Assembly (NCBI RefSeq): GCF_003334355.1
Contig: NZ_QOWP01000049.1
Reading direction: 5' to 3' (one strand)
DNA length: 16,645 nucleotides
Source: Escherichia coli
GTDB taxonomy: Bacteria; Pseudomonadota; Gammaproteobacteria; Enterobacterales; Enterobacteriaceae
The translations under genes and the position numbers were made by a program. The notes beneath the pieces were generated by a model. It ran no database searches, was not told the DNA's origin, and saw only the letters and a program-made list of their open reading frames with translations. Shown here in pieces: positions 1 through 16,645 of the stretch. Numbering within the stretch: position 1 is the stretch's first letter; the number at the start of each line of letters is the position of its first letter.

Positions 1-125
1 TGCAGTTGCCATGTTTTACGGCAGTGAGAGCAGAGATAGCGCTGATGTCCGGCAGTGCTTTTGCCGTTACGCACCACCCCGTCAGTAGCTGAACAGGAGG
101 GACAGCTGATAGAAACAGAAGCCAC
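1..125 (-). CDS. insA: IS1 InsA, N-terminal 41 codons (partial, runs off window start)
   Basis: Minus-strand translation from GTG at 125..123 gives [41 protein letters not shown], matching the IS1 InsA N-terminus from memory. Confidence 0.8.
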
Positions 126-180
126 TGGAGCACCTCAAAAACACCATCATACACTAAATCAGTAAGTTGGCAGCATCACC
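1..180 (-). mobile_element. IS1 insertion sequence, partial (terminus at 180, remainder lies beyond window start)
   Basis: Reverse complement of 158-180 is GGTGATGCTGCCAACTTACTGAT, which I recognise as the IS1 terminal inverted repeat, followed by the insA 5' region. Host AT-rich sequence begins at 181. Confidence 0.85.
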
Positions 181-4570: not shown

Positions 4571-4894
<324 letters not shown>

Positions 4895-10518: not shown

Positions 10519-10617
10519 GAGATTTCCTCCAGTTTCCTGCCTGGAGTATAGGCAACGGCTGTGCACTCTTCACCGCTAAATTCAGCAGATTGCGAGACGC
10601 CTTCCAAAGAGATTTAA

Positions 10618-10644
10618 GTGCCGGGCGACAGGCACCCGGCAAAG
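10618..10644 (-). terminator. Candidate ahr terminator hairpin
   Basis: Inverted repeat TGCCGGG...CCCGGCA just downstream of the ahr stop on the minus strand, followed by a modest U-rich tract. Confidence 0.3.
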
Positions 10645-10647
10645 GGA

Positions 10648-11667: not shown

Positions 11668-11805
11668 TTTTGGGTCCTTCTCTGGTGTTGTTTGGGAAGT
11701 GTAGAGCATGGCAGGGCGGGGTGCCTGGAGTGTGACAAAGGTTACATATCGCTGAGTGTAATGCTGAAAATTTCAGCACTTAGCGAGGTGGGTGCAAGCT
11801 GGCGC

Positions 11806-11833
11806 TTGCATGGTGGCGTGCGACAGGTATAAT
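11806..11833 (+). promoter_or_regulatory. Sigma70-type promoter for leuX
   Basis: TTGCAT (11806-11811), 16-bp spacer, TATAAT (11828-11833); predicted start about 22 nt before the mature tRNA 5' end. Confidence 0.6.
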
Positions 11834-11862
11834 CCACAACGTTTTCCGCATACCTCTTCAGT

Positions 11863-11947
11863 GCCGAAGTGGCGAAATCGGTAGACGCAGTTGATTCAAA
11901 ATCAACCGTAGAAATACGTGCCGGTTCGAGTCCGGCCTTCGGCACCA
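11863..11947 (+). tRNA. leuX: tRNA-Leu (anticodon CAA), 85 nt, type II tRNA with long variable arm, encoded CCA
   Basis: Acceptor stem GCCGAAG/CTTCGGC, anticodon loop TTCAAAA, T-loop GGTTCGAGTCC, 3' ACCA. Confidence 0.95.
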
Positions 11948-11960
11948 AAAGTATGTAAAT

Positions 11961-11984
11961 AGACCTCAACTGAGGTCTTTTTTT
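11961..11984 (+). terminator. Intrinsic terminator of leuX
   Basis: AGACCTCA-AC-TGAGGTCT hairpin immediately followed by a 7-T run. Confidence 0.75.
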
Positions 11985-12060
11985 ATGTCTGAAATCCAGT
12001 ATTTATCTACCTTTCCCGCTATATTAACTCTCTCAAGGTCAACCCATATCAACGTACATC

Positions 12061-12120
12061 TACCAACACATGTTGGTACAGATGATGGTATTTCCGGTTC
12101 GATAATGCTTGTACCAACAG
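12061..12120. promoter_or_regulatory. Repeated TACCAACA motifs upstream of the integrase gene (candidate operator or integrase/Xis binding sites)
   Basis: TACCAACA at 12061-12068, its reverse complement TGTTGGTA at 12071-12078 (palindrome with 2-bp spacer), and a third copy at 12112-12119, just 5' of the int RBS. Confidence 0.3.
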
Positions 12121-12133
12121 GGAGGGAATACGC

Positions 12134-13399
12134 ATGGCATTAACAGATATCAAAGTCAGAACAGCCAAGCCAACAGATAAGCAATATAAGCTGACTGATG
12201 GTGGCGGTATGCATCTGCTTGTCCATCCAAATGGTTCTAAGTACTGGCGTTTGCAGTACCGTTATGAGGGAAAGCAAAAGATGTTGGCACTTGGGGTTTA
12301 TCCTGAAATCACACTAGCGGATGCCAGAGTACGCCGTGACGAGGCGCGTAAGCTGCTTGCGAATGGAGTCGATCCGGGAGACAAAAAGAAAAATGATAAG
12401 GTTGAACAGAGTAAAGCACGAACCTTTAAAGAAGTCGCGATCGAGTGGCATAGCACCAATAAAAAGTGGTCTGAAGATCACGCCCATCGTGTGCTAAAAA
12501 GTCTGGAAGATAATCTTTTTGCAGCGCTTGGTGAACGTAATATCGCTGAGTTAAAAACTCGAGATTTATTAGCACCCATTAAGGCCGTGGAGATCTCTGG
12601 ACGTCTTGAAGTGGCAGCTCGTCTTCAACAGCGCACTACAGCCATCATGCGCTATGCAGTACAAAGTGGGTTAATTGATTATAACCCGGCACAAGAGATG
12701 GCTGGGGCGGTTGCTTCCTGTAATCGACAACATCGTCCGGCGCTTGAATTAAAGCGCATCCCTGAGTTGCTTACAAAAATAGATAGCTATACTGGTAGGC
12801 CGCTAACCCGATGGGCGACAGAACTCACTTTGCTGATCTTTATTCGGTCCAGTGAGCTGCGTTTTGCTCGCTGGTCAGAGATCGATTTCGAAGCGTCTAT
12901 ATGGACTATCCCACCGGAGCGGGAGCCTATTCCTGGAGTGAAGCATTCCCATAGAGGCTCAAAAATGCGTACAACGCATCTAGTGCCTCTTTCAACGCAA
13001 GCCCTTGCAATTTTAAAGCAGATAAAACAGTTTTGTGGGTCTCATGACTTGATATTTATTGGTGATCACGATTCGCACAAGCCTATGAGTGAAAATACGG
13101 TAAATAGTGCGTTACGGGTCATGGGGTATGATACAAAAGTTGAGGTTTGTGGTCATGGCTTCCGCACAATGGCCTGTAGTTCATTGATCGAATCAGGTTT
13201 GTGGTCTCGTGATGCTGTTGAACGTCAGATGAGCCACATGGAGCGAAATTCAGTGAGGGCCGCGTATATCCATAAAGCAGAACATCTGGAAGAACGGCGA
13301 TTGATGTTGCAATGGTGGGCCGATTTTCTTGATGCGAACCGGGAGAAGGGTATCAGTCCGTTTGAATACGCAAATGTTAACAATCCGCTGAGAAGGTGA
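12134..13399 (+). CDS. P4-type tyrosine recombinase / integrase, 421 aa, apparently intact
   Basis: Full-length ORF immediately 3' of a tRNA gene; GGAGGG RBS 7 nt before the ATG; sequence resembles P4-family integrases from memory; visibly lower GC than the core genes. Confidence 0.9.
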   Translation: MALTDIKVRTAKPTDKQYKLTDGGGMHLLVHPNGSKYWRLQYRYEGKQKMLALGVYPEITLADARVRRDEARKLLANGVDPGDKKKNDKVEQSKARTFKEVAIEWHSTNKKWSEDHAHRVLKSLEDNLFAALGERNIAELKTRDLLAPIKAVEISGRLEVAARLQQRTTAIMRYAVQSGLIDYNPAQEMAGAVASCNRQHRPALELKRIPELLTKIDSYTGRPLTRWATELTLLIFIRSSELRFARWSEIDFEASIWTIPPEREPIPGVKHSHRGSKMRTTHLVPLSTQALAILKQIKQFCGSHDLIFIGDHDSHKPMSENTVNSALRVMGYDTKVEVCGHGFRTMACSSLIESGLWSRDAVERQMSHMERNSVRAAYIHKAEHLEERRLMLQWWADFLDANREKGISPFEYANVNNPLRR

Positions 13400-13420
13400 C
13401 AGAAGGCTATTCACACACAT

Positions 13421-13442
13421 GCTCTTCCCCATGGGGAAGAGC
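13421..13442. other. Perfect 22-bp palindrome downstream of int (terminator or protein-binding site)
   Basis: GCTCTTCCCCATGGGGAAGAGC, 21 nt after the int stop; a T-run (13460-13472) follows about 18 nt later, too far for a textbook terminator. Confidence 0.35.
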
Positions 13443-13618
13443 AACCTGCTCCAATAAATTTCTTTTTTATTCCGGCTGATAGCACCGCAATCACCCGTTC
13501 CCTTTAAATAGCCACTTAGCATTCGGCGTAAAATTTGACAGAGAAGGACTATCTCAGCAGGAGCTTAAAGTGTGGTTTTAGGCATAATGTCAATTGACTC
13601 ACCATTTGGGAATTGTAG

Positions 13619-13951
13619 ATGATTGACATAGTTTCCCAAACGGAAAAATCACTTCCCTTCTTGGAAGAAAATCTGCGAGCACATATAAAATGGAAACAGC
13701 ACGGCGGCCCTTGTGAAATCCCCAATGGCCTGGCGTTTTGCGCAATTCACCATAAAGTCTTTGATAAAGGATCGATTGGTCTGGATGAAAATATGCGGGT
13801 ACTGGTCTCGGATGTGGTAAACGGCGGAGGGATCGTTGAGAGATTATTCTGGGATTTTGACGGGAAAACTATTGCGTTGCCACAGGTGCGTAAAAATTAC
13901 CCTTTTGAGGGGGTTGTGGAGTGGCATCGGAAAGAGGTTTTTAGGGGGTGA
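13619..13951 (+). CDS. Small ORF (110 aa) carrying only an HNH-type nuclease core; probably a 5'-truncated remnant
   Basis: Motif HGG...PNGLAFCAIHHKVFDKG resembles the C-terminal HNH core (NGLxLCxxHHxxFDxG) of larger HNH endonucleases. An in-frame TAG sits immediately before the ATG and the RBS is weak. Confidence 0.4.
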   Translation: MIDIVSQTEKSLPFLEENLRAHIKWKQHGGPCEIPNGLAFCAIHHKVFDKGSIGLDENMRVLVSDVVNGGGIVERLFWDFDGKTIALPQVRKNYPFEGVVEWHRKEVFRG

Positions 13952-14061
13952 GGTTGATAATACCGTGCCCCCATAATATTGCCATCTCTTGCATTGAGAT
14001 ATTAAAAGCTACAAATGTTCTCCCCATTTTTAAATGTAGACATTTATAGCAATATCAAAAC

Positions 14062-15060
14062 TTACTGTTCAGCTTTTTCAACAACAAAACCATTTTGCCG
14101 TACAAACTCAATCAAGAGTTCAATATTAACAATGCCCCATTGATTAGAAATAGCAACAATTTCACCAGAAGGAAGTGTAATCAACGCATCTTCATTAATA
14201 TGATAGCGACTCTTTTGCTTCTCTGGTATCTGATCGACAAGCATAACCGTCCGTTTTTTAAAGTCTTCACTTAACCCATTTATTAAATCATTATAACTTG
14301 CAGGATTAAATTGATTTATCCAATCGCGTAATAATTCAAGCGCTAATTTACGCTTATTAAGTTCTTTATCTTTATATATATACCACGTATAGTCCTTCTC
14401 TTTTTTCTGACTGCTAATTAGCTGCTCATCACGTTTTTCACGAAATTTAACTTGATATTCTTCCAATTCAGGAACCGGTATGATTTGCTCTGCATTGATC
14501 AGAACATCATCATTAAATCTATAAGGCGTCAGACGAACACATCGAATGTCTACCCCCTTATCTCTTAACCAAATCGCAGTGGTAGTCAGTTCCTTGCTAA
14601 AATCCGATGAAGCCAAAACAATTCTGATATCTTTTCCGAAATCAACAAGCTCAGTTTCATCCAGCTCAACAAATTCAAGTATTTTTTCTTTCGCATCGGC
14701 ATCGCAGTTTTGTTTTTTCAAATACGTCTGGAAATATTCACATGCTTTCGCAAAACTCATTGTGGAAATCATCGCTGCATATCGTAGTGCCTGTAACTCC
14801 ATATGCGCACCAGTTTCATCACGTTTTAATTCGATAACCACTAAATTTGCCTGTTTATCGATTGCCAATAAATCAATTCGCCGACGGCTATCTTCCCAGT
14901 CAGAAAACTCTTCGGAAATCACCAGACAATCAGGAGCAATAATATCTATGTTTTTTTTGATTGCTTCCTGTAAATCATAACGTTCCTGTAATCCTTCCAG
15001 AGTAAAGGTCGTTTTTTCTAAAGCATGTAGTTCTTTATTTGCGATATTGTACAGCGCCAC
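14062..15060 (-). CDS. Uncharacterised protein with N-terminal RecB-like PD-(D/E)xK nuclease motif, 332 aa (GTG start)
   Basis: Uninterrupted 332-codon ORF with AGGAAG RBS; very AT-rich. Residues 61-94 RIDLLAIDKQANLVVIELKRDETGAHMELQALRY give D-x(n)-ExK plus QxxxY. The C-terminal ~200 aa has no motif I recognise. Confidence 0.75.
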   Translation of the reverse strand: MALYNIANKELHALEKTTFTLEGLQERYDLQEAIKKNIDIIAPDCLVISEEFSDWEDSRRRIDLLAIDKQANLVVIELKRDETGAHMELQALRYAAMISTMSFAKACEYFQTYLKKQNCDADAKEKILEFVELDETELVDFGKDIRIVLASSDFSKELTTTAIWLRDKGVDIRCVRLTPYRFNDDVLINAEQIIPVPELEEYQVKFREKRDEQLISSQKKEKDYTWYIYKDKELNKRKLALELLRDWINQFNPASYNDLINGLSEDFKKRTVMLVDQIPEKQKSRYHINEDALITLPSGEIVAISNQWGIVNIELLIEFVRQNGFVVEKAEQ

Positions 15061-15353
15061 GTTTATCTTCCTTTTTTAACTGATTTTACAGGGACTTTAA
15101 CACAGTAAAAATTTTATTTCCTGAGCTGTAATCGATTAAGCTGATGCACTAAATGGGAATCATATAGGGTCATTTCCAGTCTCACTTATAGAAATGGCTA
15201 AAGCATGACTCTCGCCAAAACCGTGTATGTGTTGTACATAACGCGATCATCCCTCTCACAAATTGCCTTTTCTCATGGCATCTCGCCCGGTCCCCCATTA
15301 CAATCACTTTTTGTTTTTTGCGAGCTGCATTCCAGTCTTCAGAGGGTTTTTCG

Positions 15354-15959
15354 ATGATTAAAAATGACAAGGCATGGGTAGGAGACTTGCTGGGCGGGCC
15401 GCTCATGAGCAGGGAAAGCCGCGTCATTGCCGAACTGTTGCTAACCGATCCCGATGAACAGACATGGCAAGAGCAAATTGTTGGCCACAACATTTTACAA
15501 GCCTCTTCTCCTAACACCGCAAAACGTTACGCGGCAACAATCAGGCTTCGCCTGAACACGCTTGATAAAAGCGCGTGGACATTGATTGCCGAAGGTAGTG
15601 AGCGGGAACGCCAACAACTTCTGTTTGTGGCTCTGACGCTACATTCGCCGGTAGTTAAGGATTTTCTGGCTGAAGTGGTGAACGATCTGCGCAGGCAGTT
15701 CAAGGAAAAGTTGCCTGGCAATAGTTGGAACGAATTTGTTAATAGCCAGGTTCGCCAACATCCGGTACTCGCCAGCTACTCAGATTCATCTATTGCAAAA
15801 ATGGGAAACAATCTGGTGAAGGCGCTTGCTGAAGCGGGTTATGTGGATACGCCCCGCAGACGTAACCTGCAGGCAGTTTACCTTTTACCGGAAACTCAGG
15901 CAGTGTTACAGCGCCTGGGGCAACAGGACTTGATATCTATTCTGGAGGGAAAACGGTGA
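15354..15959 (+). CDS. brxA: BrxA-like protein (DUF1819-type), 201 aa; first gene of a BREX-like cluster
   Basis: ATG at 15354 with AGAGGG RBS; ~200-aa, largely helical-looking protein whose stop overlaps the next start (GTGA). Assignment is from size, coupling and gene order, not from a recognised motif. Confidence 0.55.
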   Translation: MIKNDKAWVGDLLGGPLMSRESRVIAELLLTDPDEQTWQEQIVGHNILQASSPNTAKRYAATIRLRLNTLDKSAWTLIAEGSERERQQLLFVALTLHSPVVKDFLAEVVNDLRRQFKEKLPGNSWNEFVNSQVRQHPVLASYSDSSIAKMGNNLVKALAEAGYVDTPRRRNLQAVYLLPETQAVLQRLGQQDLISILEGKR

Positions 15960-16558
15960 TAGATCCCGTTCTTGAATATCGCCTGTCTCAAATCCAGAGT
16001 CGCATTAACGAAGATCGCTTCCTCAAAAATAACGGCTCCGGAAATGAAATTGGTTTTTGGATCTTTGATTATCCCGCGCAGTGCGAACTGCAGGTACGGG
16101 AGCATTTGAAGTATCTGCTCCGGCATCTGGAAAAGGACCATAAATTTGCCTGTCTGAATGTCTTCCAAATCATCATCGATATGCTCAATGAACGCGGCCT
16201 TTTCGAGCGCGTCTGCCAGCAGGAAGTCAAAGTGGGTACTGAGACGCTGAAAAAGCAGCTTGCTGGTCCGTTAAATCAGAAAAAAATCGCTGATTTTATA
16301 GCGAAAAAAGTCGATCTGGCTGCCCAGGATTTTGTCATCCTTACCGGCATGGGCAACGCCTGGCCATTAGTACGCGGTCATGAACTGATGAGTGCCTTGC
16401 AGGATGTCATGGGGTTCACCCCACTGCTGATGTTTTATCCTGGCACCTACAGCGGGTACAACCTTTCCCCGCTCACAGACACCGGTTCACAAAATTATTA
16501 TCGCGCTTTCAGACTGGTACCAGATACGGGACCCGCAGCAACATTGAATCCTCAATGA
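15956..16558 (+). CDS. brxB: BrxB-like protein (DUF1788-type), 200 aa
   Basis: GTG start at 15956 with GGAGGG RBS, overlapping the upstream stop by 4 nt; ~200 aa; followed by a third co-directional gene. Assignment by architecture. Confidence 0.55.
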   Translation: MIDPVLEYRLSQIQSRINEDRFLKNNGSGNEIGFWIFDYPAQCELQVREHLKYLLRHLEKDHKFACLNVFQIIIDMLNERGLFERVCQQEVKVGTETLKKQLAGPLNQKKIADFIAKKVDLAAQDFVILTGMGNAWPLVRGHELMSALQDVMGFTPLLMFYPGTYSGYNLSPLTDTGSQNYYRAFRLVPDTGPAATLNPQ

Positions 16559-16621
16559 AGAGCATAATGAACCGCCCCGGAAATCCTGGAGACTAAACTC
16601 CCTGAGAAAGAGGTAAACAGG

Positions 16622-16645
16622 ATGACTAAAAATACTCGTTTTTCC
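16622..16645 (+). CDS. 5' end of the third gene of the cluster (MTKNTRFS...), runs off the window; would be brxC (large ATPase) if the BREX assignment holds
   Basis: ATG at 16622 preceded by AAAGAGG RBS, 63 nt after the brxB-like stop; only 8 codons visible. Confidence 0.35.

Follow-up and report, generated by a model that had tools for sequence, protein, structure and literature searches.

The DNA from position 11948 onward is very probably the left part of a site-specific island that was put into the 3′ end of the tRNA gene leuX by an integrase of the IntB/P4 family, presumably the very one that is encoded next to the insertion point. The stretch of DNA analysed here (the window) is an entire draft contig, QOWP01000049.1, of 16,645 nt. 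Its first 180 nt are the end of an IS1 element, which in this genome truncates yjgN, and it finishes inside an IS3-family element; breaks of the contig at both IS elements indicate that both IS types are multi-copy in the genome. An earlier sequence-only reading had proposed a tRNA-integrated island at this place, and our analysis bears this out with a P4-family integrase that has 58% identity to P4 Int and retains the catalytic residues. The locus is an already known kind of element, a catalogued mobile defence island at leuX. It illustrates the leuX defence hotspot in textbook form and matters little beyond its correct annotation.

Table 1. Features of leuX and the adjoining island in the window.
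Feature	Position	Strand	Basis or remark
leuX, tRNA-Leu(CAA), island anchor	11863..11947	+	ARAGORN; Rfam RF00005, 59.4 bits; colinear with K-12 leuX b4270
attL core GAGTCCGGCCTTCGGCACCA, last 20 nt of leuX	11928..11947	+	same sequence as the annotated 20-bp attP core of phage P4 (NC_001609)
Island-borne attL arm (P′ arm)	11948..12133	+	carries leuX terminator and three candidate arm-type repeats
Candidate arm-type repeats TGTTGGTA	12061-12068, 12071-12078, 12112-12119	-, +, -	sequence matches
P4-family tyrosine integrase, intact, 421 aa	12134..13399	+	ATG ORF; Pfam domains; identity to P4 Int
Non-coding flank 3′ of integrase, separate mosaic module	13400..13674		homology breakpoints
SBD-HNH phosphorothioate-dependent restriction endonuclease, C-terminal remnant, ~92 codons	13675..13951	+	ORF 13619-13951
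PDC-S11, 332-aa candidate single-gene defence nuclease (NucS/PD-(D/E)xK-like)	14062..15060	-	divergent from brxA
brxA, BREX type 1	15354..15959	+	Pfam PF08849, 1.7e-50; PADLOC BrxA, 1.1e-114; RefSeq "BREX-1 system protein BrxA"
brxB, BREX type 1	15956..16558	+	Pfam PF08747, 6.6e-35; PADLOC BrxB, 4.8e-68
IS3-family element (IS1203/IS629-like), left end, including first transposase codons	16568..16645	+	also contig end

The tRNA-Leu(CAA) gene is the only tRNA found in the window by ARAGORN, and K-12 leuX aligns with it base for base. The left attachment site had been predicted at about 11920-11947, in good agreement with the position of the P4 attP core over the last 20 nt of the gene. Comparison of strains places the first island-specific base at 11948: a genome that shares the same backbone and carries another island (L017) diverges from exactly this base, and a K. 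pneumoniae genome with the same island is identical from 11856 onward. The locus thus has an integrase directly downstream of a tRNA gene and an att core that overlaps the 3′ end of the tRNA. The arm between the core and the integrase gene is nearly identical to the leuX-intB spacer of K-12, and a terminator scan located the leuX terminator within it (stem at 11961-11978 followed by a T-run). All three matches to TGTTGGTA in the whole window, where 0.31 would be expected, lie within this arm, in an arrangement that parallels the annotated arm repeats of P4 attP. The same motif is present twice, directly repeated, 57-76 nt to the left of the distal core in E. coli A3, and we consider these repeats to be putative integrase-binding sites. 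Under the mechanism that we propose, recombination would occur within the 20-bp core common to the island and the tRNA, the island arm would restore the 3′ end of the tRNA and supply its terminator, and the same arm would bear the arm-type binding repeats immediately upstream of int.

The integrase, which had been noted as an intact P4-type gene 187 nt after the tRNA, proves to be an uninterrupted ORF beginning with ATG. Its product contains the Pfam domains Arm-DNA-bind_3 (2e-28), Phage_int_M (2e-26) and Phage_integrase (1.5e-19), and is 58.2% identical to P4 Int across its full length. Aligned with P4 Int, it keeps all six catalytic residues (R238, K277, H341, R344, H368 and Y378) unchanged. 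The protein combines an arm-binding N-terminal domain with the complete catalytic set R-K-H-R-H-Y. The N-terminal domain also matches a PDB entry named 'CP4-like integrase'. The exact protein is present on at least 1000 contigs, under records named for K. pneumoniae and Enterobacteriaceae. Over the stretch between leuX and position 13386 the window is 96.2% identical at the nucleotide level to the leuX-intB region of K-12, and homology both to K-12 and to another E. coli genome (L016) ends at this point. Judged by this alignment, the integrase is an intact allele of the K-12 intB pseudogene, the live counterpart of a dead gene. The sequence that follows (13380-13660) is found again, with ~90% identity, behind other integrases of O26/O103 strains, and homology to the BREX cassette begins at 13675. 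By these breakpoints the island is a mosaic of three parts: the module that contains the integrase, the flank 3′ of that gene, and the BREX cassette.

The window contains only the left end of the element, and full-length copies were found in E. coli and Klebsiella pneumoniae, where the island measures 34-38 kb with identity of up to 99.5%. A repeat of the leuX 3′ end at the distal boundary, which the sequence-only reading had named as a check, is present in every full-length relative examined. The distal core matches at 19 of 20 positions and lies 34.35 kb away in E. coli A3, 38.0 kb away in clone D i14 and 37.0 kb away in K. pneumoniae CP139497; one G is absent from it. When only mismatches were allowed, searches of two genomes (L002 and L003) found no further copy of the leuX 3′ end, because the distal copy carries this 1-nt deletion; that copy was recovered by alignment and an indel-tolerant search. 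Beyond brxB the full-length relatives continue with brxC-pglX-pglZ-brxL, a gene for a 68-aa AlpA-family protein and a CP4-type accessory module. The AlpA-family protein is, on its family assignment, a candidate regulator or excisionase. The other genes include those for Hha, a YeeP-like GTPase, Ag43, antirestriction proteins, RadC and CbtA/YeeU modules. No relaxase, oriT, coupling protein or T4SS genes occur between attL and attR in the A3, clone D i14 and K. pneumoniae copies, and the TraG-like genes in two genomes (L048 and L050) fall beyond the distal core. On this gene content of the full-length relatives, we rejected a reading of the element as an ICE or IME.

The cargo next to the integrase begins with what had been called an HNH remnant, and this description is accurate. 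The ORF matches just positions 196-284 of the 284-position NF045808 (phosphorothioated-DNA-binding restriction endonuclease), RefSeq calls the stretch an N-terminally truncated pseudogene, and the PADLOC match is to HNH. The truncation lies at the junction with the integrase module, and two other genomes (L004 and L018) hold an intact 290-aa version of the gene. An ORF with a ScoMcrA_N match near nanS (L043 and L044) was considered as the missing N-terminus and rejected because in L018 the cassette has its intact HNH gene on the other strand, next to a separate plus-strand HNH remnant. The gene previously noted for a nuclease motif can be assigned to PADLOC PDC-S11 (PDLC04909, E = 5.8e-114), with residues 1-323 aligned to positions 1-338 of the 347-position profile, a full-length match to the family. 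It also has weak NucS-like matches and is called a "PDDEXK family nuclease" in some RefSeq records. To our knowledge, a defence function for PDC-S11 has not been demonstrated.

The genes first described as BREX-like are true brxA and brxB by both Pfam and PADLOC matches; an NCBIfam search returned no match for either BrxA or BrxB. Both genes of this type 1 system are present and intact, and the BrxB protein is identical to WP_000566901.1 in all relatives. The full-length relatives hold all six BREX genes, in the order brxA-brxB-brxC-pglX-pglZ-brxL, and this contig ends after brxB. The final 78 nt of the window, overlooked in the first reading, form the left terminus of an IS3-family element: matching to every related genome stops at 16567, and the remainder matches IS1203-family transposase loci. 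Comparison of the junction with a full-length relative (L002) places the insertion point 2 nt upstream of the position of the brxC ATG. With the IS element lodged between brxB and brxC in this genome, the BREX genes are unlikely to be expressed as one unit, and the function of the system is probably impaired. If the insertion does compromise BREX, it could affect predictions of phage susceptibility. Separate scans of species-representative genomes for the brxB/IS junction and for the junction between the integrase flank and HNH found nothing.

The same BREX cassette is found inverted beside nanS, with integrase remnants only, in the one such genome examined (L018), and the nanS-HNH junction is common to ~1,255 genomes. 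Given this nanS-side cassette and the truncation of the HNH gene, the cargo is therefore not always moved by this integrase. The island as a whole combines variable presence and foreign composition with occurrence in a second species, and the same island circulates between Klebsiella pneumoniae and E. coli. The sequence-only reading had described everything from the integrase onward as AT-rich; this holds on average, with a GC content of 43.8% for 11948-16567 against 54.1% for the core genes from valS to ahr, but not for brxA (50.2%) or brxB (48.1%); the values for the integrase and PDC-S11 are 46.6% and 36.2%.

Two other origins for this DNA were weighed against insertion by the IntB/P4-family integrase. 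The region could be ordinary conserved chromosome, with an integrase that is an old, inactive relic and has no connection to the genes downstream, as might be suggested by the dead intB at the same place in K-12 and by the occupation of the leuX-nanS interval in nearly all E. coli (PMC12707154). This reading has next to no probability and is refuted by comparisons of strains, genera and composition. The arrangement is present in just 29 of 5,426 complete E. coli genomes, so that the same genes do not occupy this position in all relatives; strains with identical backbones differ in content from exactly 11948; the same island stands at leuX in another genus, with 99.46% identity to K. pneumoniae across 11771-16567; and the GC content falls by about 10 points. 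It is also very unlikely that the element is a P4-like phage satellite prophage occupying the P4 attachment site. The integration site is identical, the integrase and the layout of the arm repeats are alike, P4-like satellites have been reported at hotspot #37 (PMC10121019), and in strain A3 a true P4-type arm and integrase follow in tandem. The gene content of the full-length relatives nevertheless contradicts a satellite, and we rejected this reading: none of them has a primase (alpha), psu, delta, sid or cos-type gene annotated, and they carry instead BREX and the accessory genes listed above, and DNA similarity to P4 is confined to a 330-nt stretch of int with 69% identity.

A different question is whether the island in this genome still functions. 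It may be a fixed and decaying remnant in which IS events have disrupted BREX and possibly removed the distal att site, leaving neither excision nor defence despite the intact integrase; we put the chances of this at slightly below even. This reading concerns present activity and is compatible with an origin by integrase-mediated insertion. It is favoured by the IS3-family end just ahead of the brxC start and the IS1 truncation of yjgN, by the contig breaks at both of these ends, which point to multi-copy IS types, and by the HNH gene already being a remnant. Events of this kind are seen in related genomes: in HS30-1, IS1 has removed everything from brxL to fimH, the distal att site included, and in an IS1-rich genome (L024) only brxA-PDC-S11 remains, flanked by two IS1 copies. 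On the other side, the intact integrase, brxA, brxB and PDC-S11 do not differ from the copies in full-length, functional-looking islands, and brxC-brxL and attR (TTGAGTCCGGCCTTCGCACCA) would still be in place after a simple IS insertion.

Of the defence hotspots of E. coli, leuX is the one best documented. It corresponds to hotspot #37 of Hochhauser et al. 2023, whose left end carries an arm-type integrase; BREX is confined to hotspots #1 and #37 (PMC12707154; PMC10121019). In Salmonella the leuX region is hypervariable and includes the StySA BREX island of S. Typhimurium (PMC9009780). The island described here shares with these loci the leuX anchor, the left-end P4-family arm-type integrase, replaceable defence cargo and a BREX occupant; it is a particular variant, in which int is followed directly by a truncated HNH gene, PDC-S11 and BREX-1, with an IS element after brxB. 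With P4 it shares the target, a 20-bp core identical to the leuX 3′ end, paired arm repeats flanking the core and an int gene that adjoins it. It differs from P4 in its arm repeat, TGTTGGTA in the island and of the ATTGGGGGCAT type in P4, in its size (P4 is 11.6 kb), and in that the full-length relatives are without the P4 replication, capsid-size or cos functions.

The KpLE2 / PR-Y element of K-12 occupies the same site; its attL arm is the same, and its integrase is an orthologue. In K-12, however, intB is a pseudogene that has lost 1 nt ahead of the ATG region and contains an in-frame stop, whereas the int of the island is intact, and in place of BREX the K-12 element has a cargo of IS elements and of fec, sgc and yjh genes. 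No second copy of the core was found within 49 kb of K-12 leuX. In gene content, we take the full-length relatives to resemble the cryptic E. coli elements CP4-57, CP4-44 and CP4-6. On the side of the relatives, this likeness lies in AlpA, the YeeP-like GTPase, Ag43, YeeR, DUF932, an antirestriction protein, RadC, DUF987, YeeU/CbtA, DUF5983 and DUF957. The leuX target and the integrase allele differ from those of the CP4-type elements, and the integrase-proximal cargo of the island is a 15-kb BREX cassette.

To return to the island itself, its distal site lacks the same G in two genera, next to three right-hand flanks that differ from one another. Two genomes (L016 and L017) match this contig with 0-3 mismatches across 11.9 kb, the IS1::yjgN junction included, but have other islands at leuX. 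We tentatively suggest, while regarding it as rather unlikely, that the island's own att core is one base shorter than that of the tRNA, with crossover by IntB/P4-type integrases in the last 6-7 nt of leuX, and that the island is an active element that now moves between K. pneumoniae and E. coli and, through integrase-mediated swapping, replaces other leuX islands within one clonal background. A shorter core of this kind would, if correct, pin strand exchange to those terminal nucleotides of the tRNA gene.

The island at leuX was correctly recognised by the sequence-only reading, whose coordinates and features (the tRNA-Leu gene, the 421-aa ORF downstream of it and the drop in GC) are borne out, and it belongs to a kind of element already known: leuX is E. 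coli defence hotspot #37 (PMC10121019; PMC12707154), and BREX, which was seen at hotspots #1 and #37 only (PMC10121019), is documented there. The StySA BREX island of Salmonella is likewise at leuX (PMC9009780), and a pangenome study likewise singles out the tRNA-LeuX island as the location with the most defence systems (PMC13379101). The best-supported reading of the anatomy has four steps: IntB/P4-type site-specific integration into leuX would have been followed by restoration of the tRNA end by the island, which would have carried in defence cargo, with decay through IS elements coming later.

Features of the window and copies of the attachment core at the distal island end in relatives
Feature	Sequence	Position	Strand	Remarks
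IS1 end	Window	1-180		Truncates yjgN
tRNA-Leu(CAA), leuX	Window	11863-11947	+	Sole tRNA gene in window; Rfam tRNA 59.4 bits
Integrase, 421-aa ORF, ATG start	Window	12134-13399		187 nt downstream of tRNA-Leu(CAA)
C-terminal remnant of phosphorothioate-dependent SBD-HNH restriction enzyme	Window	13675-13951		
PDC-S11	Window	14062-15060	-	PADLOC E = 6e-114; weak NucS-like similarity
IS3-family, IS1203-like element, left end	Window	16568-16645		
Distal core copy	E. coli A3 (L002)	36156-36175		34.35 kb from leuX
Distal core copy	E. coli clone D i14 (L003)	40081-40100		38.0 kb from leuX
Distal core copy	K. pneumoniae CP139497			37.0 kb from leuX
Distal core copy	L047, L049	17830-17850		
Distal core copy	L046, L048, L050	17832-17851		

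The tRNA gene is colinear with leuX of E. coli K-12, and the genes 5' of it, in the order yjgN (truncated), valS, holC, pepA, lptF, lptG, yjgR and ahr, are those of the E. coli leuX neighbourhood, with 98-99% identity to complete E. coli genomes. GC content is 54.1% from valS to ahr against 43.8% over 11948-16567 (integrase 46.6%, PDC-S11 36.2%, brxA 50.2%, brxB 48.1%).

The annotated 20-bp attP core of phage P4 reads, on the relevant strand, GAGTCCGGCCTTCGGCACCA, and equals window 11928-11947, the final 20 nt of leuX, where the left attachment site had been predicted. The junction is sharp: the related contig L017 (GCA_043238235.1) departs from the window at exactly 11948. Both L017 and L016 (GCA_003293365.1) differ from the window by 0-3 mismatches over the 11.9-kb backbone, the IS1::yjgN junction included, and this essentially identical backbone carries three different leuX islands. 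That of L016 has an integrase 97% identical to the window's, then sulfatase and outer-membrane-protein genes; the integrase of L017 is ~13% divergent. This indicates that islands at leuX turn over rapidly inside one lineage. The window's own island is also present in a K. pneumoniae chromosome, in which the adjacent Ahr protein is named Klebsiella, at 99.46% identity over 11771-16567 and with no difference from 11856 on. Given this identity and the divergence of L017, the interval 11948-12133 is island DNA. leuX receives its terminator (stem 11961-11978) from this interval, which also contains all three window copies of TGTTGGTA (0.31 expected), whose layout beside the integrase resembles that of the annotated attP arm repeats of P4. 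These repeats are candidate binding sites of the window integrase.

The integrase, which probably carried out the integration itself, has Arm-DNA-bind_3, Phage_int_M and Phage_integrase domains (Pfam) and is 58.2% identical to P4 Int over its full length, with R238, K277, H341, R344, H368 and Y378 invariant in the alignment. Window 11863-13386 has 96.2% DNA identity to leuX-intB of K-12, and since intB is annotated there as a pseudogene, the window integrase is an intact allele of it. At least 1000 contigs encode the identical protein, with sources named as Klebsiella pneumoniae and Enterobacteriaceae.

At the distal island end, where the earlier reading had proposed looking for a direct repeat of the leuX 3' end, every full-length relative examined has a 19/20 copy of the core. 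The same G is always missing (CTTCGCACCA where the leuX core has CTTCGGCACCA), and two more bases are gone in three K. pneumoniae copies. Since the 1-nt deletion is identical beside three different right-hand flanks, the missing G travels with the island, and the crossover would fall in the final 6-7 nt of the core. A3 also has two direct TGTTGGTA repeats, 57-76 nt to the left of its distal core. In A3 and clone D i14 the island is followed on its 3' side by another P4-family integrase, which places islands in tandem; this integrase shares 58% identity with that of the window in A3 and is a frameshifted pseudogene in clone D i14. The attachment arm and integrase of the A3 tandem element (L002 36000-41300) are near-P4 and are followed by HamA and a DEAD/DEAH helicase (Hachiman-like); in the clone D i14 element (L003 40300-46700) a type III restriction-modification system comes after the integrase.

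The cargo begins with the HNH remnant (the intact gene encodes 290 aa in L004 and L018) and PDC-S11, followed by unambiguous brxA and brxB. In relatives the brxC start lies 12 nt past the brxB stop; in the window the IS starts 2 nt ahead of the corresponding brxC ATG position and probably impairs BREX expression in the source strain. The window is an entire draft contig (GCA_003334355.1 QOWP01000049.1), and the source genome is readable only to 16645 because the assembly broke at two IS copies. Full islands of relatives continue 3' of brxB with brxC-pglX-pglZ-brxL and, further on, two zinc-ribbon proteins, a Gp2-like protein and Hha; they also encode an AlpA-family protein, a YeeP-like GTPase, Ag43, DUF932, an antirestriction protein, RadC, YeeU/CbtA, DUF5983 and DUF957. 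PglX ranges from 1180 to 1225 aa, and a ~1.3-kb segment of pglX (L002 11672-13008) is unalignable with L018, L003 and L034 in cassettes otherwise 97-99% identical, consistent with a possible swapping of target-recognition specificity.

Homology of the window to K-12 and L016 ends at 13386, and 13380-13660 is found again downstream of other integrases. The BREX cassette spans 15.3 kb, from within HNH to ~235 nt beyond brxL. It also occurs inverted beside nanS with HNH intact; in L018, the one such genome examined, the only integrase sequences in that interval are remnants. Among 5,426 complete E. coli genomes, ~1,255 have the nanS-HNH junction, and the window-type arrangement, counted where at least 80% of 11700-16645 is covered, is present in only 29. 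Secondary recombination therefore joined the cargo to the integrase module and truncated the HNH gene. Beside ythB/nanS, on the + strand, there is another HNH gene, ScoMcrA-like and distinct from that of the cassette (L018 39712-40877; L043 and L044 12275-13014; K-12, L029 41016-42696). Its state of decay varies: it is a remnant, an N-terminal ORF of 214-216 aa or, in K-12, yjhR. In the IS1-rich 4.53-Mb genome L024 (CP101233.1), where fimB is followed by IS1 and then uxuA, only brxA and PDC-S11 are left of the BREX cassette, flanked on both sides by IS1 copies next to nanS, which illustrates how IS elements erode it.

The truncated yjgN (259-1188, 309 aa) abuts the IS1 end; the full gene has 1,197 nt in HS30-1. 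L014 and L016 have the same IS1/yjgN junction (99.98% identity from base 1); the contigs of L015 and L017 stop near the IS1 boundary but have the adjacent backbone too. Junction and backbone mark one clonal lineage. Between yjgR and ahr (10558-10647) the window lacks the idnR-idnT-idnO-idnD-idnK operon, which measures 5.1 kb in HS30-1 and K-12 and is missing here from several other E. coli as well. The predicted yjgR ORF is longer at its N-terminus (559-575 aa against 500). The holC-pepA intergenic region (4593-4890) contains 3.1 tandem copies of a 98-bp unit (94% matches), varying in number among strains, that look like a REP/BIME-type array.
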